From a virus, in IMG/VR virus record IMGVR_UViG_3300030380_006483: a stretch of 64,000 nucleotides of DNA; one strand, written 5' to 3'. This document shows, one piece after another, positions 49,097 to 63,937 of the stretch (within the stretch, counting starts at the first letter, position 1; each line of letters begins with the position of its first letter). A program made the translations under genes and the position numbers. The notes below the pieces were generated by a model that was given only the letters and a program-made list of their open reading frames with translations, did not search any database and was not told the origin of the DNA.

Positions 49097-49319
49097 AGGA
49101 AGAACTTCAGAGTACGCTAAATTACCAATTAGTATTGTATTTGCTACTTCAAAAAGATCAAATGCAAAAATTAAAATTAAAACTATTAAAAATAGAAATA
49201 TTGATCAATTACTTGACTGTAATTTTAATATTCCTGGTATTCCTAAAATAGCAGTTATATTAGAGGTTGGAGTAGGTAAAGCTTTTCACGACATTTATAA
49301 GAAGAAATATGGTCTATAA
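49089..49319 (+). CDS. Small basic hypothetical protein
   Basis: Start reassigned to ATG 49089. Confidence 0.5.
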   Translation: MARGRTSEYAKLPISIVFATSKRSNAKIKIKTIKNRNIDQLLDCNFNIPGIPKIAVILEVGVGKAFHDIYKKKYGL

Positions 49320-49839
49320 ACCTGCATTTACTAGAGAAGAATTAAAAGAAAAATTCTCACATTTACAAAAACTAAATTATAATCAATTTAGATGGTGGAG
49401 AATGTATGATGTAAAAAAGAAACCATTAGCGGCATATTGTTCATTACGTGATCGTATAGCAAATGGTGATTATGATTTTTCCCATTATTGGTATCAGGCA
49501 GCGTGGGTAGAACATGATATAAATGACTTAGCAATTGAATGTAAAGATGATGCTGGATTATTCTCAGAAAAGGTTCAAGTGCTGAGTGCGCGCCGTAAAC
49601 GTTTATATGAGGATTATGAAAAAGATGAAAAATGGAAGTTAGATGATTTAGTTAAAGAATTTTCTCGTAATTTTTATATAACAAAAGATGAAGCTATGTT
49701 GGAGATGGAAGAATTTGGTGGTACATTACTTGAGTTACATGATTATATTTCAACACATTCAAAATATAAATTAAAAGCAAATAAATCCCCCAGGGTAACA
49801 TTTAAAAAAAGAGGTAGACCTAAAAAAATAGTAGCATGA
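49309..49839 (+). CDS. Hypothetical protein
   Basis: 176 aa; C-terminal KKRGRPKK (AT-hook-like). Confidence 0.55.
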   Translation: MVYKPAFTREELKEKFSHLQKLNYNQFRWWRMYDVKKKPLAAYCSLRDRIANGDYDFSHYWYQAAWVEHDINDLAIECKDDAGLFSEKVQVLSARRKRLYEDYEKDEKWKLDDLVKEFSRNFYITKDEAMLEMEEFGGTLLELHDYISTHSKYKLKANKSPRVTFKKRGRPKKIVA

Positions 49840-50000: not shown

Positions 50001-50564
50001 ATGAATAAGATCATACATCCTTTTCAATTTCCTATATATAGTAAAAAATTATCAAGTTCTAATTTTTTAAAAATAAAAAATGATGTAGATATATTTCTTC
50101 AAAATAATACTTTAACAACACCTATTAATTGGGATTGCAATACTTTAAGTAGTATAAATATCCCCCCAGATAAAAATATTAATAGCCCTACTTTAATAAA
50201 TGAAATTCATAAATCATCATTAGAGTATTATAAAACATGGGAATTTGAAAATAATTTTAATTTAACCCTTTATCATATGTGGGTTAATATAGCCTCCCCA
50301 GGAGATTATCAAGAAGTTCATCACCATATTCCTTCACTATTTAGTGGTGTTTTATATATAGATTGTTCTGAAAAAAGTGGAAATATTTCTTTTAGAAATC
50401 CTTTAAAATCTGAATTTGGTTTAATGGGAATTGAAAAAAATATTACAATTACCCCTGAAATGGGATTATTAATTTTATTTCCTTCTTGGTTAGAACATTC
50501 TGTATTTGAAAATAAATCAAATAAAAATAGAATATCAGTTAGTTTTAATATAAATAAAAAATGA
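50001..50564 (+). CDS. 2OG-Fe(II) oxygenase-like protein 2
   Basis: MWVN...QEVHHH...FSGVLYI...GLLILFPSWLEHSV...RISVSFN. Confidence 0.85.
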   Translation: MNKIIHPFQFPIYSKKLSSSNFLKIKNDVDIFLQNNTLTTPINWDCNTLSSINIPPDKNINSPTLINEIHKSSLEYYKTWEFENNFNLTLYHMWVNIASPGDYQEVHHHIPSLFSGVLYIDCSEKSGNISFRNPLKSEFGLMGIEKNITITPEMGLLILFPSWLEHSVFENKSNKNRISVSFNINKK

Positions 50565-50806: not shown

Positions 50807-51467
50807 TTTAGATAAAATTTTTAAAAGTATTTATGTTGAAAAAAAATGGGGTTATAAAGATAATGATGTTTTTTACTCTGGTATGGGGTCACATTATAAA
50901 GATCTAGTAAACCCATATATAAATTCTATTAAAAATTTTACTGAAAATTTTAAAGAAAAACTTAACGTAATTGATATAGGTTGTGGTGATTTTAATGTAG
51001 GTAAACAACTATTACCTTATTTTAATAATTATACTGCTGTAGACGTTGTAGATTCTTTAATTAAATATAATAAAAATAAATTTAAAAACTTAAATGTTAA
51101 TTTTCAAACCCTAAATATAACTAATCAAACTATTCCCTTTACTGATGTAATTATATTAAAACAAGTTTTGCAACATCTATCAAATCAAGATATTTTTAAT
51201 ATTCTAAAAAATATATATTTAAAAAGCAAATACATAATTCTTACAGAAAGTATACCTTATGATTCTTTTACTCCAAATTTAGACATTAAATCTGGAGTTA
51301 AAACAAGAGTTGCAGAAAATAATAGTGGAGTAGATATACTTTCTTTACCATTTAATTTCCCTATTCAAGAAAAATTTATTACATTAACATTAGAAGAAAT
51401 GATTGAATCAGGAGAGGATAAATTAAAATATTTAACACAAACAATAATATATAAGCAATATGAGTAA
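50799..51467 (+). CDS. Class I SAM-dependent methyltransferase
   Basis: VIDIGCGDF, YTAVDVV and KQVLQHL; start reassigned to ATG 50799. Confidence 0.8.
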   Translation: MGNLDKIFKSIYVEKKWGYKDNDVFYSGMGSHYKDLVNPYINSIKNFTENFKEKLNVIDIGCGDFNVGKQLLPYFNNYTAVDVVDSLIKYNKNKFKNLNVNFQTLNITNQTIPFTDVIILKQVLQHLSNQDIFNILKNIYLKSKYIILTESIPYDSFTPNLDIKSGVKTRVAENNSGVDILSLPFNFPIQEKFITLTLEEMIESGEDKLKYLTQTIIYKQYE

Positions 51468-51924
51468 ATTTATATCAACAAAAATTTTTGATGGTTTTAG
51501 TTGTGTCTTTAGACAATGGAAAGCTGAAACTACACACTGTAGATACCTTCATGGTTATGGGGTATCATTTAAATTATGGTTCGAAGGTGAACTAGATGAA
51601 AGAAATTGGGTATGGGATTTCGGAGGAATGAAAAGAGCAAAAGGTCAAATAGATGGAATGTCTCCTAAAGCATGGATGGATAATATGTTTGATCATACCT
51701 TCTTAGTAGCAGAAGATGATCCCTTTAAGGAATCATTTATAAGAATGGATGAAGCAGGAGTAGCTCAAGTCAGAATAGTACCAGCTACTGGGGCAGAGAA
51801 GTTTGCCGAATTTATCTTTAATAAATTAAACCCATTTATCCAGGAAGAAACAGATGGTAGAGTAAAAGTAATAAAAGTAGAATTTAGAGAGCACGGAAAA
51901 AATAGTGCAATATATGAAGATTAG
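51460..51924 (+). CDS. queD: 6-carboxy-5,6,7,8-tetrahydropterin synthase
   Basis: HCRYLHGY, WVWDFG, FDHT, TGAEKFA and terminal REHGKNSA: T-fold PTPS/QueD motifs. Confidence 0.9.
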   Translation: MSKFISTKIFDGFSCVFRQWKAETTHCRYLHGYGVSFKLWFEGELDERNWVWDFGGMKRAKGQIDGMSPKAWMDNMFDHTFLVAEDDPFKESFIRMDEAGVAQVRIVPATGAEKFAEFIFNKLNPFIQEETDGRVKVIKVEFREHGKNSAIYED

Positions 51925-52678
51925 TCACGAGGTACCTAAGGTTTTATTAAATAATAGTCGAGAATGGAATGATTATGATTATTGTTTACCTCATCTTTTA
52001 GATGAAGATGAACAATATAAAAATTTTTTCTATGAATCTAAAAAACAAGGTCGTTATATTATTATGGATAATTCACTTCATGAATTAGGTAAAGCATATA
52101 ATCACGAAAGATTATTACACTGGATAACAGAATTACAACCAAATGAATTTATAGTACCTGATGTTTGGATGAAACAAGCCCAAACTTGTGCTCAGGCAAA
52201 ATATTGGTTACAATTTAAATATCCTAAAAATACTAAAATAGTAGCTGTAGTACAAGGTGAAGATAAAGTTAAAGCACATTTATGTGCTAGTTTAATTAGA
52301 GATTTAGGATATAATAAACTTTGTATATCTTATGGTGCGGGTTGGTATGGTGATAATCCTTTAAATAAAGCCCTAGGTAGAATAAATTTTGTTAAAGAGT
52401 TGTTAGAAGATAAAAGATATAAAGATACTAAATTTCATTTATTAGGTTGTGCTGTACCTCAAGAGTTTGGTTGGTATAGAAATGAATCTCAAATAGAATC
52501 AATTGATACCTCAAACCCAATAATGGCAGCTTTAGAAGGAATTTCGTACACAAAAAGTGGTTTAATAGAAAAACCAAAAGCAAATATGAATACTCATTTT
52601 GATATTGAACCTGAAAAAATTGATTATAATAAAATATTAAAAAACGTAAAAAGATTTAGAACAATAAATGGTTTATAA
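51914..52678 (+). CDS. TGT-fold protein, candidate DpdA-like 7-deazaguanine transglycosylase
   Basis: IIMDNSLHE, FIVPDV, VAVVQG, FHLLG and SIDTS line up with TGT/DpdA barrel motifs; lies between queD and queC. Confidence 0.55.
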   Translation: MKISHEVPKVLLNNSREWNDYDYCLPHLLDEDEQYKNFFYESKKQGRYIIMDNSLHELGKAYNHERLLHWITELQPNEFIVPDVWMKQAQTCAQAKYWLQFKYPKNTKIVAVVQGEDKVKAHLCASLIRDLGYNKLCISYGAGWYGDNPLNKALGRINFVKELLEDKRYKDTKFHLLGCAVPQEFGWYRNESQIESIDTSNPIMAALEGISYTKSGLIEKPKANMNTHFDIEPEKIDYNKILKNVKRFRTINGL

Positions 52679-52866
52679 TGGCAGAAATAATTAGACATAT
52701 TAGTGGAATGTGTGGTGAACATTTTCACCCAAACATTTGGCACCTTTTATTAGGTGGGGTTGGAATAACAACTATTTTATCGTATATTAGTTTATACTTA
52801 AAATGTAAATTTAAAGCGTTTGCCTATACGCTTAATAATACCTGGCAAAAATTTAAATTAAAATAG
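52678..52866 (+). CDS. Small protein with one hydrophobic segment
   Basis: 62 aa with CGEHFHP motif; coupled to the upstream gene. Confidence 0.45.
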   Translation: MAEIIRHISGMCGEHFHPNIWHLLLGGVGITTILSYISLYLKCKFKAFAYTLNNTWQKFKLK

Positions 52867-52868
52867 AA

Positions 52869-53663
52869 ATGGCAAAAAATGTCGTAGTATCCTTATCTGG
52901 AGGGATGGATTCCTCAACTTTATTACTTAGATGTTTATCTGAGTATGATAACGTAACTGCTTTATCTTTTGATTATGGTCAAAAACATAGAGTAGAATTA
53001 GAAAGGGCTCAATCATTAATTAACTATGTTAATGAAAATGGGCAAAATGTAAATTACCAAGTTATTAAATTAGATGGTTTAGTTAATTTATTAGAATCAA
53101 ATTTAGTAGATGGGGGTGATGATGTACCTGAAGGACATTATGAAGAAGAAAATATGGTTGCAACTGTAGTACCTAATAGAAATAAAATATTTGCTTCTAT
53201 TACCCAAGCAGTAGCATTATCTATAGCAAATAAAACAGAAGAATCTTGTGATATTGCTTTAGGTATTCATGCTGGCGACCACGCAATTTATCCTGATTGT
53301 AGACAAGAATTTAGAGATGCTGATGATGCAGCATTTAGAGTTGGTAATTGGAACTCAGAAACTGTGGGTTACTTTACACCGTATTTAGAAACAGATAAAT
53401 TTGGAATACTACAAGATGGACAAATCCTTGTTAAGAACCTTGGAATTGATTTTAATGAAGTATATAGACGTACTAATACTTCTTATAAACCTTTCCCTAG
53501 CGGTAATAGCGATTATAAATCAGCGAGTTCAGTGGAAAGGATTGAAGCATTCATTAAATTGGGTGTCAGTGACCCTGTACAATATGAGGACGAAACTGGG
53601 CCGGTAGATTATGAAGTTGCGAGAAAACATGTTGAAAAGTTATTAGCAGAATATTCGGAATAA
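52869..53663 (+). CDS. queC: 7-cyano-7-deazaguanine synthase (Zn-site cysteines absent)
   Basis: SLSGGMDS PP-loop, FDYGQKH, VPNRN and HAGDHAIYPDCRQEF. Confidence 0.9.
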   Translation: MAKNVVVSLSGGMDSSTLLLRCLSEYDNVTALSFDYGQKHRVELERAQSLINYVNENGQNVNYQVIKLDGLVNLLESNLVDGGDDVPEGHYEEENMVATVVPNRNKIFASITQAVALSIANKTEESCDIALGIHAGDHAIYPDCRQEFRDADDAAFRVGNWNSETVGYFTPYLETDKFGILQDGQILVKNLGIDFNEVYRRTNTSYKPFPSGNSDYKSASSVERIEAFIKLGVSDPVQYEDETGPVDYEVARKHVEKLLAEYSE

Positions 53664-53847: not shown

Positions 53848-53920
53848 TGCGGGGTGGAGCAGAAGGTAGCTCGCTGGGCTCATAACCCAGAGGTCAGAGG
53901 TTCGAATCCTCTCCCCGCCA
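53848..53920 (+). tRNA. tRNA-Met(CAT), initiator type; CCA not encoded
   Basis: Cloverleaf with 1:72 mismatch (T/C), A11:U24, anticodon stem CTGGG/CCCAG with three G-C pairs, loop CTCATAA and T-loop TTCGAAT. Confidence 0.93.
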
Positions 53921-53927
53921 CTATTTT

Positions 53928-54446
53928 ATGGAAACAATAAATTTATTTCCCCAAATTTTAAAATCATTTAAGTATTCTAATAATACTAATTTTCTTTTAG
54001 AAGAAATAAATAAAATTAAAGCTTTATATCCAAATAAAGCTCCTTCTTTATTTAAAGATGCAATTTATACTTCTCCAAATTTTCTTTTTCAAAGTTATAA
54101 AAATTTTAAATTTTTAGAAAATGATATAAAATCATTAGTTTTAAAAAATTATAATAAAAATTGTAAAATTACTGATTCTTGGATTAATATATATTATAAA
54201 CATGGGTATAATGATTTCCATAACCATTTTAAAAATGATCTAGCAGGGGTATTATATTTAAAGGTTCCAAAATCTCATCCTGGGATTAATTTTCATAATA
54301 AACATAACCCTATTCAAATATTTAATTATAAACCTCCCTCTAATACAATAATCTTCTTTGATGGTGATCAATATCACAGTTCTTTTCCTAACCCTGAAAA
54401 TACTGAAAAAATAATTATAGCGTTTAATATATCTTTTAAAGATTAA
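53928..54446 (+). CDS. 2OG-Fe(II) oxygenase-like protein 3
   Basis: SWIN...NDFHNH...AGVLYL...IIFFDG..YHSS...IAFN. Confidence 0.75.
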   Translation: METINLFPQILKSFKYSNNTNFLLEEINKIKALYPNKAPSLFKDAIYTSPNFLFQSYKNFKFLENDIKSLVLKNYNKNCKITDSWINIYYKHGYNDFHNHFKNDLAGVLYLKVPKSHPGINFHNKHNPIQIFNYKPPSNTIIFFDGDQYHSSFPNPENTEKIIIAFNISFKD

Positions 54447-54498: not shown

Positions 54499-56334
54499 AT
54501 GGCTACATTAACCAATAGGACTATAAGATCGACTTACGATCAACTTTTACAACTAGAAGATAATTTAATTCAAGACGGTTTTGGAACTCATTCTTTAAGT
54601 GGTTCCTATAATCTTACTGGAAGTCAATTTATATCTGGTAATCTTCATATTAATGGTACAGCTTCTATTGATTATTTAGTTTCTTCTTATGAATCATCAT
54701 CTATTATTTTTAGTTCAGGTTCAACAAAATTCGGAGATGACACTTCAGATACCCATGAATTTACGGGAAGTGTTCTAATAAGTGGTTCCGCTTTTAGTAC
54801 AAATTGGAGTGGATCCTTTACTGGTTCATTTATTGGTTTAGCAGATTCTTCATCTAATGCGACAAGAGCAGTTACTGCTTCACAAGCTGATAGAGCTACA
54901 ACATCTTCCCTTGCTAATAAGGCCTCTAATCTACAAATAGTTGGAGAAGATTCAAGTGCAGCCACTCATTATGTTCTTTTTGGCCCTAACTCATCAGGAG
55001 AATCTGATGTTAATGCAGATGGTAATTTAAATTATGTACCCAATACTGAAACTTTAACAGTTACTAAAGTAATAGGTAATTTAGAAGGAACAGCATCAAA
55101 TGCTGATACAGCATCTGTATTATTAGGTTCTGTAATTTCGGCTTCTCATTGTGAGACCGCTTCACTAGCAATTTCAACATCAGTAGTTAATGTTACTTCA
55201 ACTTCATTTGCAAACAGTGGTGATGGTCCATTTACTGGTTCATTTTCATCCAGTTTACCTTCATTATTATCCGGTTCATTTACAGGTTCCTTTACTGGCT
55301 CATTAGTTGGTAATACATCAGTTAGTAACATACTACAAACTGGTACTACTCAAACAACGGGATCTAATACTATTTCTGGGTCATTAACAATAACAGGAAG
55401 TTCAACTTTAGCAGTAAGAATAACTGGTAGTACAGCTTTAACAGGAAGTCTATTACAAAGTGGCAGTATTGTATCAACTGGAAGTTTATTACAAAAAGGT
55501 AGTACACAAATTTCAGGTTCTACTCTTTTATCAGGTTCATTACTTTTAACAGGTAGTAGTACCCTGGCATTAAGAGTTAGCGGTAGTACAGCTTTAACGG
55601 GTAGCTTACTACATAGTGGTAGTACAGCCCTAACGGGGAGTTTATTACAAAGTGGTAGTATTGCATTAACTGGAAGTTTATTACAGATTGGTACTACACA
55701 AACTACTGGATCTAATATTATATCTGGATCATTATTAATAACAGGTAGTTCTGCAATAGGACTTAGAATGTCTGGAAGTACGGCATTAACGGGTAGTGTT
55801 TTCCAAACAGGATCACTTAATGTAACTGGTAGTACTAATTTATCTGGATCTTTAGTAATAGTAGGAAATATTAATACGGGACAGGGTGTTACAGAAGTAT
55901 ATTTACAAAACCAAAATTTAAGAACAGCTGATTCAGTACAATTTAATGGACTAGGAGTTGGAACAGCACCATCAGGAGTAGCAGGAGCTATTTTAGCTAC
56001 TAATGATGTTGTAGCATTTGCTTCTTCAGATGAAAGATTAAAGGAAAATCTAGAACCAATTGGAAGTGCTACAGAAAAAATAGGACAATTAACTGGTTAT
56101 ACATTTGATTGGATTCCAATGGAAGGAATTCATGTACATTCAGGACATGATGTTGGAATTATTGCTCAAGAAGTAGAAAAGGTACTTCCTGAAGTTGTAG
56201 AAACAAGAAAAAATGGTTATAAAGCTGTTAAATATGAAAAACTTACAGCATTACTTATACAAGCCCTTAACGAACAACAAAAAGAAATTGATAACCTTAA
56301 AAGTAAGGTTGGATCGTTAGAAAATCGTTTGTAA
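54499..56334 (+). CDS. Orphan fibre protein with [ST]GS repeats and S74 chaperone
   Basis: Repeats and S74 domain nearly identical in places to 18826 and 23428; ATATTTAT at 54470. Confidence 0.85.
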   Translation: MATLTNRTIRSTYDQLLQLEDNLIQDGFGTHSLSGSYNLTGSQFISGNLHINGTASIDYLVSSYESSSIIFSSGSTKFGDDTSDTHEFTGSVLISGSAFSTNWSGSFTGSFIGLADSSSNATRAVTASQADRATTSSLANKASNLQIVGEDSSAATHYVLFGPNSSGESDVNADGNLNYVPNTETLTVTKVIGNLEGTASNADTASVLLGSVISASHCETASLAISTSVVNVTSTSFANSGDGPFTGSFSSSLPSLLSGSFTGSFTGSLVGNTSVSNILQTGTTQTTGSNTISGSLTITGSSTLAVRITGSTALTGSLLQSGSIVSTGSLLQKGSTQISGSTLLSGSLLLTGSSTLALRVSGSTALTGSLLHSGSTALTGSLLQSGSIALTGSLLQIGTTQTTGSNIISGSLLITGSSAIGLRMSGSTALTGSVFQTGSLNVTGSTNLSGSLVIVGNINTGQGVTEVYLQNQNLRTADSVQFNGLGVGTAPSGVAGAILATNDVVAFASSDERLKENLEPIGSATEKIGQLTGYTFDWIPMEGIHVHSGHDVGIIAQEVEKVLPEVVETRKNGYKAVKYEKLTALLIQALNEQQKEIDNLKSKVGSLENRL

Positions 56335-56344
56335 ATTACCTTTA

Positions 56345-57454
56345 ATGAGTTATAATATTTTAGGAATTAACAGCAGTCATAATGGCTCAGTTTGTGTTTT
56401 ATGTGATGGGGAAATTGATTTTTTTGTAGAAGAAGAAAGATTTTCTAGAAATAAACATGAAGATACACCTGTAGAAATTTTAAAATATGTTGCTTCTAAA
56501 TATAAAATTGATGAAATTGCTATTGGTGGTTTAGAAATTCTTTTTGAAGCAAATGCTTCAAAAATTTATCAAAATTATTTAAAACTTTTATTCAAAAATA
56601 CTCCACTTACTAATTTATTAGGATCCCATCATCTTTGCCATGCTTTTTCTAGCTTTAGCAGTTCAGGTTTTAATAAAGCTTTATGTGTAGTTATAGATGG
56701 GTCTGGAAGTTTATTATATAGAAAAGAGGATGAAAAATTAATAGGAGTAGAAACTGAAAGTATTTTTACTTTTAAATATCCTACAAATATAAGCACTATA
56801 TATAAATCTTATAAAACTTTTAATCCTAATGATGATAAAAGTACAGATAGTAAATTAATGAATTTTAATATTACTTTAGGAAAATTATATGAAAGTATTA
56901 CTACTAAATTATTTGGACATTGGGTGTATGCCGGTAAGACTATGGGTTTATCTTCTTATGGAAAATATGACAAAAATATTCCTTCATTAATAATAAACCA
57001 AAGAGCTAATCCTAAATTTTTAGCAGGAAAAACTACAACTAATATTAAAATGGATCTTAATGATGTTGAAGGTACCATAAATACAAAGTATGATTATTTA
57101 TTTAAAGAAGAATTAAAGTCTAATATATGTTATCATTTACAAAATGAGATACAAGAAGTTGTAGGAGATATAATAGAAAAATATGTAAAAAAAACAGGAT
57201 TAAAAAAAGTTTGTGGCTCCGGAGGTTATTTTTTAAACTGTGTATCAAACTATTATTTAAAAAAAAGATTTCCTGATATAGATTTTTATTTTGACCCAAT
57301 ATCAAATGATGCAGGTATAGCATTAGGTGCTGCTAAATTATTGTGGCATATGAGAAAAAATGATACAACCATAAGACCTCAAAAAACATTATATAATGGG
57401 CCAAAATATACTAATAAAGAAATTTATAAAAAAATTCAAGAATATTTGGATTAG
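56345..57454 (+). CDS. Carbamoyltransferase (NodU/CmcH) N-terminal Kae1-like domain only, copy 1
   Basis: HNGSVC...EEERFSR, HHLCHA, IDGSG, GKTMGLSSYG, GGYFLNCVSNY and NDAGIALGAA; stops after the LYNGPKY linker. Confidence 0.9.
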   Translation: MSYNILGINSSHNGSVCVLCDGEIDFFVEEERFSRNKHEDTPVEILKYVASKYKIDEIAIGGLEILFEANASKIYQNYLKLLFKNTPLTNLLGSHHLCHAFSSFSSSGFNKALCVVIDGSGSLLYRKEDEKLIGVETESIFTFKYPTNISTIYKSYKTFNPNDDKSTDSKLMNFNITLGKLYESITTKLFGHWVYAGKTMGLSSYGKYDKNIPSLIINQRANPKFLAGKTTTNIKMDLNDVEGTINTKYDYLFKEELKSNICYHLQNEIQEVVGDIIEKYVKKTGLKKVCGSGGYFLNCVSNYYLKKRFPDIDFYFDPISNDAGIALGAAKLLWHMRKNDTTIRPQKTLYNGPKYTNKEIYKKIQEYLD

Positions 57455-57525: not shown

Positions 57526-58299
57526 ATGCTTAAAAGAATAGACGATTATTCTAAACGTCTCCCAGTATTAGAATTATACACAGCAGTACAATCGGAGGGA
57601 TCCAGACAAGGATATCCTACTATTGTAGTTAGAACAACAGGCTGTACACACAGATGTTATTTTGGAGAAGGTGGATGGTGTGATAGCTGGTATACATCAA
57701 TACATCCTGAAAAAGGAAAATATAATTTTCAAGATATTATTGATATGTACGATAAACATCCCCATATAAAGGAGATGATGTTAACAGGAGGATCACCAAC
57801 AATGCATCCTGCTTTAGTAAATGAATTAACACACCTAGCAAATGAAAGAAATATTTTCATTACCATCGAAACTGAGGGATCTCATTTCCTTCCCACTGAC
57901 TTTCCTATTGGTCTCCTTAGTATTAGCCCTAAATTCAGTAATTCAGTTCCTACTCTCGGTGCTACAACTCCTCAAGGACATACTGTGGAGCAGAAGATGA
58001 TTGATAGACATAACAAGTATAGATTAAATAAAGAAGCTATAAAAAAGTCTATTGAATATCATAATGATTACCATATTAAACCCGTATTAGATAAAGATTT
58101 AACTATGGTAGGTGAAGTAGAAGAATTCATTAAAGAACTAGACATTCCAGATCATAAAATTTGGGCAATGCCAGCAGGTGATGATAGGGAATCATTATTT
58201 GAAAGTTATGGTCCTGTAATGAACTTTGTAAGGGATAGAGGTTGGAGATATACCGGTAGATCCCATATAATGGCCTTTGATACAGAAAGAGAGGTTTAA
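57526..58299 (+). CDS. queE: 7-carboxy-7-deazaguanine synthase (radical SAM)
   Basis: ELYTAVQSEG, VRTTGCTHRC...WCDS (Cx3Cx7C), LTGGSP, TIETEG and SISPK. Confidence 0.9.
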   Translation: MLKRIDDYSKRLPVLELYTAVQSEGSRQGYPTIVVRTTGCTHRCYFGEGGWCDSWYTSIHPEKGKYNFQDIIDMYDKHPHIKEMMLTGGSPTMHPALVNELTHLANERNIFITIETEGSHFLPTDFPIGLLSISPKFSNSVPTLGATTPQGHTVEQKMIDRHNKYRLNKEAIKKSIEYHNDYHIKPVLDKDLTMVGEVEEFIKELDIPDHKIWAMPAGDDRESLFESYGPVMNFVRDRGWRYTGRSHIMAFDTEREV

Positions 58300-58434
58300 A
58301 TGGATAAGGAAGAAGCACTCCAAATTTTAGAAGAAATAAAAGAAAATGTAAATGTCTGCTGTGCCGTTACTATGGAACCAGAAGATGTATTAGAATTAAT
58401 AGATAAATTAGAAAGTTATATAAATGAACAATAG
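58300..58434 (+). CDS. Unlisted 44 aa acidic protein
   Basis: MDKEEALQILEEIKENVNVCCAVTMEPEDVLELIDKLESYINEQ*; fills the queE-folE gap. Confidence 0.5.
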   Translation: MDKEEALQILEEIKENVNVCCAVTMEPEDVLELIDKLESYINEQ

Positions 58435-59116
58435 AAAACAACAACACACAGATTTAGAATCTGTACCAGTAGGTTACGCAAATGGTGTAGCACCTGGATT
58501 TCCTTTAACAGATAAGGAAAAACAAAAAATGATAGATCGTGCTGCAAAAGCATATGGTAAATTCTTAACTGAATTAAAATGTGATTGGGAAAATGATCCT
58601 AATTCGGCTGATACACCAAGACGTGTAGCTAAAGCCTATGTAAATGATTTATGGGAAGGTAGATATACTGCTATGAGTGAAGTAACATCTTTCCCAAGTG
58701 ATGGTTATGATGGTATAGTAATAGAAAGAAATATACCAATTACATCAATGTGTTCTCACCACCACCAAACTATAAAAGGTTTAGTACATATAGGTTATAT
58801 CGCAGATGAAGATGGTAGAGTAGTTGGATTATCTAAATTAAATAGGATAGTAGAATTATTTGGTAGAAGAGGAGCAATACAAGAACAATTAACATCAGCG
58901 ATTCACAATGCTGTAAACACTATTTGTACGAATAATAAAGGTGTTATTGTTACAGTAGTAGCTACACATAATTGTGTTAGTTGTAGAGGAGTAAAACATC
59001 ATGGAGCTTCAATGGTTACAACAAAAGCATCTGGTGTATTTATGCAAAATGAAAACTTAGCTAGAAAGGAGTTTTTTGATTCAATTAAAGTTAATAATGG
59101 AAATCATCCTGTATAA
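58424..59116 (+). CDS. folE: GTP cyclohydrolase I
   Basis: DTPRRVAK, SMCSHHH, VGLSKLNR, QEQLT and HNCVSCRGV. Confidence 0.95.
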   Translation: MNNRKQQHTDLESVPVGYANGVAPGFPLTDKEKQKMIDRAAKAYGKFLTELKCDWENDPNSADTPRRVAKAYVNDLWEGRYTAMSEVTSFPSDGYDGIVIERNIPITSMCSHHHQTIKGLVHIGYIADEDGRVVGLSKLNRIVELFGRRGAIQEQLTSAIHNAVNTICTNNKGVIVTVVATHNCVSCRGVKHHGASMVTTKASGVFMQNENLARKEFFDSIKVNNGNHPV

Positions 59117-59553
59117 TGGTAATAGAATTAAATGATAAAGCATTCCTATCATGGGATGACATAGAAAAACAAGTTGATAAACTTGTAGAACAAATAAATA
59201 AAATGGATAAAAAACCATTTTACATTTATGGTGTGCCTCGTGGAGGAGCCATTCCAGCTGTATGGTTATCTCATAAAACTGGTATAAAATATCAACAAAT
59301 TAATTCATCCCAAATATCAAAATCAGCAGATTTATCTCATGTATTGATAGTAGATGATATTTGTGATTCAGGAGAAACAATACAAAAACTTAAAGAAGAT
59401 TTCCCTAAGTGTTTAACTGCAACTTTATATCATAAAGAATCAGCAATTGATAAACCAGATATTTATGGAGAAATATCCACGTATAATTGGTTATATTTTC
59501 CTTGGGAAAACCAACAATCCTCAGAAGTAAGAGATAACACATATGGGTTATAA
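59116..59553 (+). CDS. Type I phosphoribosyltransferase (Gpt/Hpt-like)
   Basis: GVPRGG, PRPP loop LIVDDICDSGET and WLYFPWE. Confidence 0.88.
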   Translation: MVIELNDKAFLSWDDIEKQVDKLVEQINKMDKKPFYIYGVPRGGAIPAVWLSHKTGIKYQQINSSQISKSADLSHVLIVDDICDSGETIQKLKEDFPKCLTATLYHKESAIDKPDIYGEISTYNWLYFPWENQQSSEVRDNTYGL

Positions 59554-60607
59554 TATTCTAGGAGTTACTCCTGGTCATAATGGTTCTATAGCTTTAGTTT
59601 CAAACGGAAAATTAGTTTTTTATTTAGAAGAAGAAAGATTATCTAAGGTAAAAAAAGATGCTAATCCATTAAAGACACTTTATTTTTCATTACAAAAATA
59701 TAAGATAGATGAAGTAGTATTATGTGGTGCCGGACGTCAATCACCAAACTTAGTCCGTAAAGGAGAGGATTTATATTATTCTATATCTAGAAAATTTTAT
59801 CCTAAAGTAAAATTCACTAGTTATGAAGATCATCATCATCTAACACATGCAGCTTCTTCATTTTATACTTCTGGTTTTCAAAAATCTTTAGGAGTAGTAA
59901 TTGATGCCCAAGGATCCAATTTTAATTATAAAGGAGAAAAAATATTTGAAAATGATTCTTTATTTTATTGTGAATATCCTAATAATATTAATCCAATCCA
60001 TAAAATATATCTTTCTGATTCTATTAGTCATTCAACTAAACAAGAAAAAATTACACCCTTTTTTTCAACAGCAAAGGTTTATGAAGCAGTAAGTGAATAT
60101 TTAAATTTTCATGAAGAAGAGGGTAAAACTATGGGTTTATCTTCTTATGGTAAGTCTAATTCTTTTATTTTAGATTTTTTAAAGGATGGAATAATAAACC
60201 CTAAATATTATACACATGAAAAAACTTATGGTTCTATATACCCAAAAATGAAGTTCCCTAAAAATATCCCTCCTAAAGATATAGCATGGGAAATTCAAAA
60301 TAAATCCCAACAAATAGTAGGTGATTATATAGAAAAAGGAATTAAAGAAACAGGATTAAAACAAGTTTGTTGCGCTGGAGGTTATTTTTTAAACTGTGTA
60401 TCAAACTATTATTTAAAAAAAAGATTTCCTGATATAGATTTCTATTTTGACCCAATATCCCATGATGGTGGAACCTCAATTGGAGCAGCTTTATATAGAT
60501 GGTACAACCACTCTCAGGATAAGAGTATAAGACCTAGAAAAAATTTGTATAATGGTTTTAAATATTCTAAAAAAGAATTAAAAAAAATAATTAAAAAATA
60601 TTTATAA
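59543..60607 (+). CDS. Carbamoyltransferase N-terminal domain only, copy 2
   Basis: Same motif set (HHLTHA, IDAQG, GKTMGLSSYG, GGYFLNCVSNY, HDGGTSIGAA); stops after LYNGFKY. Confidence 0.9.
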   Translation: MGYNILGVTPGHNGSIALVSNGKLVFYLEEERLSKVKKDANPLKTLYFSLQKYKIDEVVLCGAGRQSPNLVRKGEDLYYSISRKFYPKVKFTSYEDHHHLTHAASSFYTSGFQKSLGVVIDAQGSNFNYKGEKIFENDSLFYCEYPNNINPIHKIYLSDSISHSTKQEKITPFFSTAKVYEAVSEYLNFHEEEGKTMGLSSYGKSNSFILDFLKDGIINPKYYTHEKTYGSIYPKMKFPKNIPPKDIAWEIQNKSQQIVGDYIEKGIKETGLKQVCCAGGYFLNCVSNYYLKKRFPDIDFYFDPISHDGGTSIGAALYRWYNHSQDKSIRPRKNLYNGFKYSKKELKKIIKKYL

Positions 60608-60996: not shown

Positions 60997-62736
60997 ATGG
61001 CATATAATATTCTAGGAATTAATCCTGGCCATAATGGTTCTGCCGCCGTAATTTCAGATGGTAAGTTAGTTTATTATTTAGAAGAAGAAAGATTAACAAA
61101 AGAAAAAAGAGATGGAAATCCTTTTAAAACTATAATCGATATTTGTTCTAAGTTTTCTATTAACGAACTAATAATAGGGGGAACAAACACCCCAGCTGAA
61201 AGGTCAACTTTATCTTATACTAAAGAAAATCCCTATTTTTCTCTTGTAAGAAAATTAAATTTAGGAATAGAAGACTATACAAATTTATCCAGCAGCCACC
61301 ATTTATTGCATGCTTTTAGTAGCTTACATAATTCCCCATTTCAATCTGCTGCTGTTATAGTAGTAGATGGATGTGGGTCTTGGCTACACTATAATGATAT
61401 TGCTCCTTTTTCTTCACTTGCAATAGAAGAAGGTAAAAATAATAATGTTCATGAAGCTGAAAGTATATATGAGATAAATACAAATAAATTTCCAATTGAA
61501 GAGGGGATAGAAAAACATTATGTTAATTATATTAGTAATAATATTAATGTTGAAACTAAATTTATTAATAGAAATCCTGGAATAGTTAAAGTATATGAAG
61601 GTATAACCGATTATTTAGGTTTTCATCCTTTAGATGCAGGAAAAGTAATGGGTTTATCTTCTTATGGTAAGTCAAATCCAAACATTCCTCCTTTATTTGT
61701 AAATCATAAAGGTAATTTAGATATATTTAAACCATCATACCCAGCAAAATGTGAATTATTAACTAACAACACCCCAGTACTACATGGTAATCAAAAAACC
61801 AAAGACTTTCATCATGATAAATCAAAACTTAATATGGTTTATGCTGATTTAGCTTATGAAGTACAAACCCAAACAGAAAAAGAAATACATCACTTAATTG
61901 AAAAAGCTATAAATTTAACAGGTAATAATAATATTTGTATTACTGGAGGGTATGGGTTAAATTGTGTAGCTAATTATAACATGAAAAAAAAATTCCCTAA
62001 GATAAACTTTTTTCATGATCCTGTATCTTTTGATGGGGGAATATCAATAGGTGCAGCATACTTAGGATGGTTAATAAAAAAAGAGAAAAACGATAAATCA
62101 AAATCATTTTCACTTTATTTAGGCCCTAAATATTCTTTAAAAAAATATAAAAAACAAATTAAAAATTATTCAAAAATGTTTAACACTTATAAAGTAAATT
62201 ATAAAGATGTAGCTAAAATAATTTCAGAAAGAAATATAGTTACAATATTCCAAGGCAGATCAGAGGCTGGTCCTCGTGCTTTAGGAAATAGGTCCATTTT
62301 ATACGATCCAACAGACCCTAATGGTAAGGATTTTGTAAATAAAGTTAAAAAAAGAGAATGGTTTAGACCATTTGCTGGTACTGTTTTATTAGAAAAAGCT
62401 AATGAATATTTTGATATGGCTGGTTTAAAAGAATCTCCGTTTATGATGTATGCAATGGATGTTTGGCCTGATAAACAAGATAAAATTCCTTGTATTACCC
62501 ACGTAGATGGTACTTGTAGAATCCAAACATTAACCGAAGAACAAAATCCACATTATTATAAATTAATTCAAGAATTTGAAAAAATAACAGGTGTACCTAT
62601 TTTATTTAATACTTCATTTAATTTAGCAGGTGATCCACTTGTAGAGACAATTGAAGATGCATTAGAAACAATGCTTAAAAGTGAAATGAAATATATGTAT
62701 GTTCCTGAATTAGAAATGCTTTTAGAGAAAAAATAA
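60997..62736 (+). CDS. Full-length carbamoyltransferase (NodU/CmcH/TobZ family)
   Basis: N-domain motifs plus C-terminal YrdC-like domain: FQGRSEAGPRALGNRSIL, VKKREWFRPFA, THVDGTCRIQT and LFNTSFN. Confidence 0.95.
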   Translation: MAYNILGINPGHNGSAAVISDGKLVYYLEEERLTKEKRDGNPFKTIIDICSKFSINELIIGGTNTPAERSTLSYTKENPYFSLVRKLNLGIEDYTNLSSSHHLLHAFSSLHNSPFQSAAVIVVDGCGSWLHYNDIAPFSSLAIEEGKNNNVHEAESIYEINTNKFPIEEGIEKHYVNYISNNINVETKFINRNPGIVKVYEGITDYLGFHPLDAGKVMGLSSYGKSNPNIPPLFVNHKGNLDIFKPSYPAKCELLTNNTPVLHGNQKTKDFHHDKSKLNMVYADLAYEVQTQTEKEIHHLIEKAINLTGNNNICITGGYGLNCVANYNMKKKFPKINFFHDPVSFDGGISIGAAYLGWLIKKEKNDKSKSFSLYLGPKYSLKKYKKQIKNYSKMFNTYKVNYKDVAKIISERNIVTIFQGRSEAGPRALGNRSILYDPTDPNGKDFVNKVKKREWFRPFAGTVLLEKANEYFDMAGLKESPFMMYAMDVWPDKQDKIPCITHVDGTCRIQTLTEEQNPHYYKLIQEFEKITGVPILFNTSFNLAGDPLVETIEDALETMLKSEMKYMYVPELEMLLEKK

Positions 62737-62740
62737 AATT

Positions 62741-63937
62741 ATGAAAATATTAGGATTTAATCCTTCTCATCATAGCTCTACTTGTATAGTAAATAATGGT
62801 GAAATAGAATACTTCATCCAAGAAGAAAGAATAAATAAAATGAAATATGTTTCTTTCCCAATGGAATCTTTTATAGAACTCCTAAAAAACAGAACCCCAG
62901 ATGTAGTATGTTTCGCTGGTGCTAGTATATCTTTTCCACTTTGTGGCCAATCAGATGACAACCTTTGGCATGTAATAACTGATATTTACTTAAAAGAAAA
63001 TTATGAATTTTTTGATTTTTCTTTTAGTTATGATCAAAAGAATAAACCTAATGATGGAGGATTCCATCATATTGCACATGCTTCTAGTGCTTTTTACAAT
63101 TCAGGCTTTAAAGAAGCTTTATGTTTAGTAGCAGATGGATTAGGATCTATTATTTTAAATAGTGGTACTGAAACTGAAACTCTTTTTAAATTTTCATATC
63201 CATCTTTTTTTGAAATACTACATAAAAAACTATATATGGACAACTTTCCTAAACATGTATCAGAATCTCTCCCAGATAATATGACAATAACAACAAAAGT
63301 AAACCTAAGTAGAGTTTATGAAACTGTAACAATGTGGTTAGGGTTTAGTAGGAATGATGCTGGTAAAACTATGGGTTTATCTTCTTATGGAAAATATAAT
63401 AAAAATATTCCTAATTTTTTAGATAAAGAAGGAGATGGAGACCCCAATGTAATTATTGTTGACCGTGATAGAAAAGGAGAATATGAAATTGAAAAAGGAT
63501 ATCAGTGTACTTTTATAGATAAAGAAAAGAATCCTTATTTAAAAAACCAAGATGCAACAAAATGGCACCATAATAAATCAAATATAACAGACTTAGAAAA
63601 AGACGTAGCTTGGAAAGTTCAAGATGAAACACAAAAAAGAATAGGTGATATAATAGAAAAAGGAATTAAAGAAACAGGATTAAAACAAGTTTGTTGTAGT
63701 GGGGGTTATTTTTTAAATTGTGTTGCAAACTATTATCTTGTAAAAAGATTTCCTGATATAGATTTTTATTTTGACCCAATAGCTAATGATGCTGGTACAG
63801 CTATGGGAATAGCTCAATTAGTTTATCATCACAAAACTAGAGATACTACTATAAGACCTTTAAAATCTTTATATTTAGGTCCAAAATATCCAAAAGAAGA
63901 ACTATTAAAAGAAATTAAAAAATATGTGGATAACTAA
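62741..63937 (+). CDS. Carbamoyltransferase N-terminal domain only, copy 3
   Basis: HHIAHA, ADGLG, GKTMGLSSYG, GGYFLNCVANY and NDAGTAMG; stops after LYLGPKY. Confidence 0.9.
   Translation: MKILGFNPSHHSSTCIVNNGEIEYFIQEERINKMKYVSFPMESFIELLKNRTPDVVCFAGASISFPLCGQSDDNLWHVITDIYLKENYEFFDFSFSYDQKNKPNDGGFHHIAHASSAFYNSGFKEALCLVADGLGSIILNSGTETETLFKFSYPSFFEILHKKLYMDNFPKHVSESLPDNMTITTKVNLSRVYETVTMWLGFSRNDAGKTMGLSSYGKYNKNIPNFLDKEGDGDPNVIIVDRDRKGEYEIEKGYQCTFIDKEKNPYLKNQDATKWHHNKSNITDLEKDVAWKVQDETQKRIGDIIEKGIKETGLKQVCCSGGYFLNCVANYYLVKRFPDIDFYFDPIANDAGTAMGIAQLVYHHKTRDTTIRPLKSLYLGPKYPKEELLKEIKKYVDN

Follow-up and report, generated by a model that had tools for sequence, protein, structure and literature searches.

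A putative DpdA3-family 7-deazaguanine transglycosylase with a minimal barrel fold, encoded between queD and queC of an immuto-like myovirus

The DNA analysed here (hereafter the window) is a stretch of 64,000 nucleotides from the IMG/VR virus record IMGVR_UViG_3300030380_006483. It represents one strand of a myovirus and carries genes for portal, major head, sheath and fibre proteins, DnaB, a UvsX-like protein and ribonucleotide reductase. With a major capsid protein that shares 57.6% identity with its counterpart in Flavobacterium phage immuto, the source phage is an immuto-like myovirus. The gene under study lies within a cluster for the synthesis of 7-deazaguanines, and its product is read here as a DpdA3-type enzyme of the tRNA-guanine transglycosylase (TGT)/DpdA superfamily, which would replace guanine in the phage DNA by a 7-deazaguanine. 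The gene itself, its direct neighbours and the further biosynthetic genes are the following:

51914..52678, + strand: gene under study, DpdA3-family 7-deazaguanine transglycosylase, minimal TGT-fold barrel (254 aa, ATG start)
51460..51924, + strand: QueD, 6-carboxytetrahydropterin synthase (PF01242, E 5.7e-16; phrog_2389, E 1e-40)
52678..52866, + strand: 62-aa open reading frame (ORF) with one hydrophobic helix, coupled to the stop of the gene under study (no family match)
52869..53663, + strand: QueC, 7-cyano-7-deazaguanine synthase type (PF06508, E 3.6e-37; TIGR00364, E 9e-36)
57526..58299, + strand: QueE, 7-carboxy-7-deazaguanine synthase, radical SAM (S-adenosylmethionine) enzyme (phrog_2076, E 2e-47)
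58424..59116, + strand: FolE, GTP cyclohydrolase I (phrog_2197, E 2.5e-60; TIGR00063, E 6.5e-42)

QueD, QueC, QueE and FolE are thus all encoded within 7 kb of the gene. Its ORF is intact at 51914-52678 (+), and the opposite strand is closed by many stops. A GTG at 51905 offers an alternative start; homologues share the N-terminus MKISHE, which belongs to the ATG start. At its ATG the gene overlaps the end of queD by 11 nt, and the final A of its TAA stop is at the same time the first letter of the ATG of the 62-codon ORF (TAATG). As the gene overlaps both neighbours, it is translationally coupled on both sides. The 62-aa ORF has homologues (57-90% identity) at the same place, in the closest relatives only (loci L007-L013). 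Homologues of the gene under study are very numerous, with 1673 matches among representatives at 50% identity and 2754 metagenomic clusters at 90% identity, many of them from Tara and JGI ocean samples. From the representative library and the 90% clusters an alignment of 114 diverse homologues (A1) was built. Judged by the many homologues and by the near-invariance of the motif residues in these 114 relatives, the ORF is a real gene and not a chance frame.

An earlier note, made from the sequence alone, had described a 254-aa protein encoded between queD and queC, with five motifs in the order found in TGT and DpdA barrels and with no zinc-binding cysteine cluster. The flanking genes and the surrounding FolE/QueD/QueE/QueC cluster could be confirmed, as could all five motifs, which occupy residues 51-57 (MDNSLHE), 81-84 (VPDV), 112-115 (VVQG), 175-178 (HLLG) and 196-200 (SIDTS). 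The description of the cysteines also held: the five present (24, 92, 124, 137 and 179) are scattered, none of them is invariant in the alignment, and no CxCxxC...H pattern of the zinc-binding type was found in the protein, the only conserved histidines among the 114 relatives being H5, H27 and H175.

The AlphaFold2 model of the protein, computed with A1, has a predicted local distance difference test score (pLDDT) of 97.6 and a predicted template-modelling score (pTM) of 0.93 and exhibits eight beta/alpha units. A Foldseek search with this model against the PDB returned TGTs for all of the first 50 matches (E ~1e-7, probability 1.00). Structural alignment with VIA-align yielded Z-scores of 17.3 for the archaeosine TGT of P. 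horikoshii (ArcTGT, 1IQ8), 17.1 for the TGT of Z. mobilis and 16.9 for the DNA preQ0 insertase DpdA (7UI4; preQ0, 7-cyano-7-deazaguanine), each alignment covering about 230 of the 254 residues. In a search of BFVD the model of the DpdA3 from phage phiST came second (TM-score 0.87). The Foldseek search, the AlphaFold2 model and the VIA Z-scores of 16.9-17.3 together bear out the TGT barrel that the earlier note had claimed. At the sequence level, phmmer with the protein found no match among PDB sequences, and the A1 profile ranked de novo TIM barrels first, which reflects a generic beta/alpha repeat signal, and reached 7UI4 with an E-value of 0.021. Comparisons of A1 by hhalign with single sequences and with shallow TGT and DpdA1 profiles gave probabilities of 37%, 54%, 2% and 6%, with the catalytic motifs still aligned; these low-probability alignments serve for residue mapping only. 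According to the model, the protein is a (beta/alpha)8 barrel which has kept the catalytic core and lost the zinc subdomain as well as the large insertions of TGT and bacterial DpdA (bDpdA).

Three aspartates within this core are the predicted key residues of the active site:

52067..52069, + strand: codon of Asp52 (MDN), which corresponds to Asp95 of bDpdA and Asp102 of Z. mobilis TGT and is predicted to act as general acid/base
52160..52162, + strand: codon of Asp83 (VPD), predicted base-recognition aspartate; equivalent to Asp130 of bDpdA and Asp156 of TGT
52505..52507, + strand: codon of Asp198 (SIDTS), which corresponds to Asp256 of bDpdA and Asp280 of TGT and is predicted to be the nucleophile

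D52 and D198 are present in 114/114 sequences of A1 and D83 in 113/114, and none of the three varies among the five cultured DpdA3 proteins and the protein studied here. The complete set of invariant positions in A1 comprises D52, E57, P82, H175, L177, G178, D198, P202 and N244. Against 7UI4, the A1 profile pairs 'HLLGc..pqEf...iesiDTSnP' with 'HLLGIARPESF...VTSIDSTTP', and from this alignment, together with the 20-residue offset caused by the tag, L177 corresponds to Leu236, which stacks on the base, and D198 to the nucleophile Asp256. In the bDpdA of Salmonella, the mutants Asp95Ala and Asp256Ala lose guanine exchange (PMC10164549). The hhalign comparison with the DpdA1 profile of phage 9g (6% probability, used for mapping only) places D52 on the aspartate of LDSG, D83 on 'LD', VVQG on 'CFH' and SIDTS on 'SCDSS'. 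The catalytic aspartate is hence found where the note had put it, within MDNSLHE. Two further positions vary in a way known from characterized enzymes. Of the 114 sequences, 95 have Gln and 18 have His at position 114, an alternation that parallels Gln203 of TGT and His181 of bDpdA, and the gating residue four positions after D52 (H56; Phe, His or Tyr in A1) parallels Tyr106 of TGT and Phe99 of bDpdA.

With a TGT fold, the catalytic residues in place and a Gln at position 114 as in bacterial TGT, the protein might be a phage tRNA-guanine transglycosylase that acts on host or phage tRNA, in the manner of the queuosine or archaeosine pathways, and not on DNA. A tRNA gene even lies 1.2 kb downstream. 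However, this gene encodes a tRNA-Met (CAT), which has no GUN anticodon, and the protein lacks both the zinc subdomain and the C-terminal tRNA-binding domains. Likewise, no match to the Pfam TGT family (PF01702) was found for it, and among the 114 relatives a single one matched weakly (E 8e-4). As its relatives furthermore occur in phages with modified DNA and not modified tRNA (PMC10516641), a role in tRNA modification can hardly be considered likely at all.

The assignment to a subfamily follows from comparison with phage proteins. No Pfam or NCBIfam model reaches its cut-off on the protein; the nearest are DUF6610 (PF20314; 17.8 bits against a gathering score of 27, E 0.0027, residues 167-224 only), which also matches 18 of the 114 relatives weakly, and the bacterial DpdA model NF041059 (17.3 bits against a cut-off of 200). 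In PHROGs the protein matches phrog_19058 over its full length (E 6e-44). This family, listed as 'unknown function', is also matched by CP220 gp056 (1.5e-181) and by the DpdA of immuto (3e-56). A tblastn search against 50,697 phage records matched 32 of them, among which are Campylobacter Firehammervirus phages such as CP220 (38% identity, residues 1-254 of the query), phage immuto with a protein annotated as 'DNA guanine transglycosylase, DpdA' (34%), Bacillus BSP7-like phages (27%) and Cellulophaga phiST-like phages (21%). The corresponding BLASTP E-values are 2.5e-51 for CP220 gp056 and 5e-48 for immuto (both over the full length), 3e-16 for BSP7 and 6e-12 for CGPG_00065 of phiST. BLASTP revealed no similarity to the DpdA1 of 9g or to E. 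coli Tgt, and a tblastn search with 9g DpdA1 matched 245 records, with no phage among the matches listed that was also among the 32. The DpdA3 subfamily was defined by CGPG_00065 of phiST and its homologues in Campylobacter phages (Hutinet et al., 2023, NAR 51:9214; PMC10516641). As the full-length similarity is to these founders and BLASTP finds none to the DpdA1 of 9g, the protein is by its sequence a clear member of DpdA3 and not of a new subfamily. The annotation of the gene should accordingly read DpdA3 instead of hypothetical protein.

The earlier note had spoken of a candidate divergent DpdA as the inserting enzyme, perhaps from a new subfamily. Its reading of the fold and of the predicted role stands; the new subfamily has to be given up in view of the BLASTP matches to CP220, immuto and phiST and the shared phrog_19058, and is replaced by a separate marine clade within DpdA3. 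A subfamily distinct from DpdA1-4 could be argued from the sub-threshold scores of all family models, from the mere 38% identity to the best cultured relative and from a gene order of its own without QueF. In a maximum-likelihood tree rooted on phiST/BSP7, moreover, the 17 sampled rows with the order QueD-DpdA3-QueC and no QueF, including the window, form one clade (SH-aLRT support 98), which is separate from the clade of CP220 and immuto. Yet the same tree places the protein inside the span from phiST/BSP7 to CP220/immuto, and BLASTP finds it nearer to phiST (6e-12) than CP220 (4e-6) or immuto (8e-6) are. As its length, its motifs and the missing zinc site are also the same as in cultured DpdA3 proteins, a new subfamily appears very unlikely.

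Some metagenomic members of DpdA3 are fusion proteins. Two of them (P0164 and P0257) carry a C-terminal formyltransferase (DpdN-like) domain, which ties the family to deazaguanine tailoring. In two others (P0123 and P0157) DpdA3 is fused to GIY-YIG and/or NUMOD3 homing-endonuclease modules, which suggests an invasion of the DpdA3 gene by endonucleases.

The gene order of the window is shared by nearly all of its relatives. Among 40 IMG/VR loci which contain a relative and have a readable neighbourhood, 39 show the order QueD-DpdA3-QueC and have neither QueF nor DpdN nor a kinase within 10 kb; the single exception (L044) has the order known from immuto, DpdA3-DpdN-kinase-QueF. Three complete relatives (161-174 kb) were found to lack QueF as well. 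When five related records were searched with the QueF model PF14489, five matches below the cut-off appeared, four of which were FolE (a cross-match within the T-fold) and one an ORF other than QueF; the QueF protein of immuto found no match in the related records. In the window, tblastn detected no homologue of the QueF, DpdN, thymidylate kinase or nucleoside triphosphate (NTP) pyrophosphatase of immuto, nor of the HD/AAA protein or thymidylate kinase of CP220. DpdA3 thus has a very large uncultured marine branch in which the QueD-DpdA3-QueC core is fixed and the preQ0 pathway complete, while QueF is missing; this branch offers many natural sequence variants for expression trials. Relative to immuto, the transglycosylase has diverged far more (34% identity) than the genes of the pathway that feeds it (QueD 70%, QueE 71%, FolE 64%, QueC 69.5%); the phosphoribosyltransferase (PRTase) described below is 38% identical.

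Two further genes recur beside the cluster in related loci:

59116..59553, + strand: Gpt-like (xanthine/guanine) PRTase (PF00156, E 7e-10; NF006613 xanthine PRTase, E 8e-17, below cut-off)
49309..49839, + strand: orf176 (P0272), helical protein with an AT-hook-like K-R-G-R-P-K-K tail (AlphaFold2 pLDDT 88)

The PRTase gene starts with the last base of the folE ORF, and a PRTase follows FolE in about 20 related loci. In relatives (e.g., L050:1830-3099 and L003:16292-19768) it is followed by orf128 and then by a MazG-like NTP pyrophosphatase, which was found in 11 relatives and is 67-77% identical to that of immuto. In the phage studied here the position of the latter falls beyond the end of the window, behind inserted carbamoyltransferase genes. 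PRTase, orf128 and MazG form a conserved nucleotide-handling tail on the DpdA3 cluster. In 26 related loci, including those with a different gene order, a homologue of orf176 immediately precedes QueD or DpdA3. These homologues share the invariant residues W29, R31, N52-G53-D54, R95, L99 and D102 and a conserved C-terminal KRGRPKK. No family match was obtained for orf176, Foldseek against the PDB returned nothing, the best VIA Z-score was 5.8 (helical noise), an Atlas feature search yielded no usable match, and tblastn against phages gave no hit. A complex prediction of DpdA3 with orf176 scored 0.00, which is evidence neither for nor against an interaction. It is uncertain whether orf176 belongs to the system; it could help to target the enzyme to DNA or could regulate the DpdA3 module. 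The conserved companions of DpdA3 (Gpt-like PRTase, MazG-like NTP pyrophosphatase and AT-hook-tailed protein) may account for the lack of activity of DpdA3 on its own in E. coli.

Taken together, these data suggest, with a probability of roughly 0.6, that the protein is a DpdA3 which swaps guanine in the phage DNA for a 7-deazaguanine, most likely preQ0. The fold, the conserved residues D52, D83, Q114, L177 and D198, the family, the coupling to queD and the absence of QueF from the window and from the three complete relatives were computed here, and the mechanism is transferred from TGT and the DpdA of Salmonella. Asp198 would attack C1' of a deoxyguanosine in the phage DNA, upon which guanine would be expelled with Asp52 as the general acid and a covalent enzyme-DNA intermediate would form. 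Asp52 would then deprotonate N9 of the incoming 7-deazaguanine, and the intermediate would thereby be resolved. Asp83 and Gln114 would read the guanine-like edge of the base, which His56 (Phe or Tyr in relatives) and Leu177 would sandwich; the guanine set free may be recycled by the Gpt-like PRTase. If the cultured DpdA3 phages are taken as a guide, the product would be a heavily or fully substituted, restriction-resistant DNA: replacement of 100% of G has been reported, for CP220, phiST and immuto only (Hutinet et al., 2023; PMC10516641).

The QueC of immuto must supply preQ0 to QueF, and the QueC of the window shares 69.5% identity with it; the incoming base is therefore most likely preQ0 from the synthesis genes of the phage itself. 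If QueC stops halfway, ADG would be a possible alternative, as in CP220.

Several points weigh against the exchange on DNA or against preQ0 as the base. Tests of DpdA3 in E. coli failed and activity has been reported for no DpdA3 (Hutinet et al., 2023; PMC10516641), so that DNA as the substrate is taken over by analogy; in the same study DpdA3 is thought unlikely to use preQ0. The protein lacks the insertions and the zinc subdomain, which bDpdA and TGT partly use for nucleic-acid binding, and the family is acidic (median isoelectric point 5.7), with R156 and K220 as the only conserved basic residues. The Gpt-like PRTase in the cluster and the MazG-like pyrophosphatase in relatives hint at chemistry in the nucleotide pool. 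A gene for QueF or another tailoring enzyme could lie outside of the 64-kb window, and the base might then be a different one. Finally, with an identity of 34% to the DpdA3 of immuto against 64-71% for the Que genes, the specificity of the enzyme may differ from that of the members studied so far.

The main rival reading is an exchange prior to replication, in which the bare barrel swaps guanine for preQ0 on a free deoxynucleotide and not on DNA. The MazG-like pyrophosphatase would convert dGTP to dGMP, from which dPreQ0-MP would be formed; kinases would phosphorylate it further to the triphosphate, from which the phage polymerase would make DNA with full substitution, and the Gpt-like PRTase would salvage or clear the released guanine or ribosylate the base. 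Such a route would account for the extent of replacement, which is 100% of G in DpdA3 phages against 0.1-30% for DpdA1, DpdA2 and DpdA4 (PMC10516641), as full replacement is typical of routes through the dNTP pool, for example that of MazZ/PurZ/DatZ in Z-genome phages (PMC8342488). It would also suit a protein that consists of the core barrel only; DpdA1 (317 aa), however, is likewise compact and acidic, yet works on DNA (PMC10516641), and all characterized enzymes of the TGT superfamily act on a polynucleotide. The PRTase directly after folE would have a place in this route, but it is absent from CP220, BSP7 and 9g. Besides the MazG-like enzyme in 11 relatives, another one is found beside the phiST module, and in CP220 and immuto the neighbours of DpdA3 include P-loop kinase-like genes; yet the annotated phage 'thymidylate kinases' have no match to PF02223, and no homologue of them was found in the window or the marine loci. 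The conserved neighbour orf176, with its AT-hook-like tail of the DNA-binding type, also speaks for DNA as the site of action, and Hutinet et al. (2023; PMC10516641) favour a post-replicative route. An exchange on the mononucleotide is therefore regarded as unlikely, although it would explain the complete replacement and would be without precedent, both as a pre-replicative route to 7-deazaguanine DNA and as the action of a TGT-fold enzyme on a mononucleotide.

Further genes are interspersed within the cluster. A class I SAM methyltransferase (PF08242/PF13649; 50763-51467, +) lies between thioredoxin and queD, with an overlap on either side. None of the 40 related loci contains it, not even the 94%-identical L007, in which thioredoxin and QueD are direct neighbours; the methyltransferase gene seems to have entered the deazaguanine cluster recently and is not of the DpdM (DUF3109) type. 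Four carbamoyltransferase paralogues of the NodU/CmcH type (56345-57454, 59543-60607, 60997-62736 and 62741-63937, all +) are interleaved with queE, folE and the PRTase gene. One of them is of full length (579 aa, N- and C-terminal domains) and three consist of the N-terminal Kae1-like domain only. Relatives contain fewer of these genes or none, which suggests that they are insertions into the conserved run of PRTase, orf128 and MazG. The tRNA-Met gene (53848-53921, +; Rfam 63 bits, also found by ARAGORN) is situated between queC and a 2-oxoglutarate (2OG)-Fe(II) oxygenase gene. At gathering scores it was the only Rfam match in the 64-kb window; no preQ1 riboswitch reached the threshold. Between queC and queE, at 54499-56334 (+), lies the gene for a tail fibre whose C-terminal part is a Peptidase_S74 intramolecular chaperone domain; two relatives (L003 and L004) have it at the same place. 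Two 2OG-Fe(II) oxygenases of the PF13759 family (50001-50564 and 53928-54446, +) flank the QueD-DpdA3-QueC core, and relatives carry extra copies between queE, folE and the PRTase gene. These oxygenases could take part in tailoring the base, or they could be auxiliary genes with no connection to it.

Compared with known systems, the protein shares with the TGTs of Z. mobilis (1PUD) and P. horikoshii (ArcTGT, 1IQ8) the catalytic barrel and equivalents of Asp102, Tyr106, Asp156, Gln203, Met260 and Asp280. Unlike these, it is about 120 residues shorter and has neither a zinc site nor tRNA-binding domains, the identity being 12-14%. To the bacterial DpdA of Salmonella Montevideo (7UI4; Z 16.9 over 230 residues, 16% identity) it corresponds residue for residue in HLLG and SID(S/T). 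It lacks, however, Ins1-3 and the 128-residue Ins8 of bDpdA (PMC10164549), has a Gln in place of His181, and no DpdB ATPase partner was identified near its gene.

Among the phage enzymes, the DpdA1 of Enterobacteria phage 9g (gp03) is likewise compact (317 aa), acidic and derived from TGT, and its LDSG, LD and CDSS align; it differs in having no BLAST similarity to the protein and in replacing only part of G (PMC10516641). DpdA4 (DUF6610, PF20314; gp69 of Halovirus HVTV-1) provides the sole, sub-threshold Pfam signal, over the region from HLLG to SIDTS. According to Hutinet et al. (2023; PMC10516641), this subfamily is confined to viruses of archaea.

The closest correspondence is with the DpdA3 proteins of the cultured phages CP220, immuto and phiST (38%, 34% and 21% identity), which belong to the least understood DpdA subfamily, the one linked to complete replacement of G. 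They share the length of 254-264 aa, the minimal TGT-fold barrel, the three aspartates, HLLG, SxDTS, the missing zinc site and a location among FolE/QueD/QueE genes. The protein studied here differs from them by its place in a separate uncultured marine clade with the order QueD-DpdA3-QueC. This clade predicts a genome of the dPreQ0 or dADG type in immuto-like flavobacterial myoviruses. As its cluster contains QueC but lacks QueF, DpdN and DpdL, the predicted base, preQ0 or ADG, would differ from those of immuto (fdPreQ1) and phiST (dDG), and it may either match or differ from the dADG of CP220.

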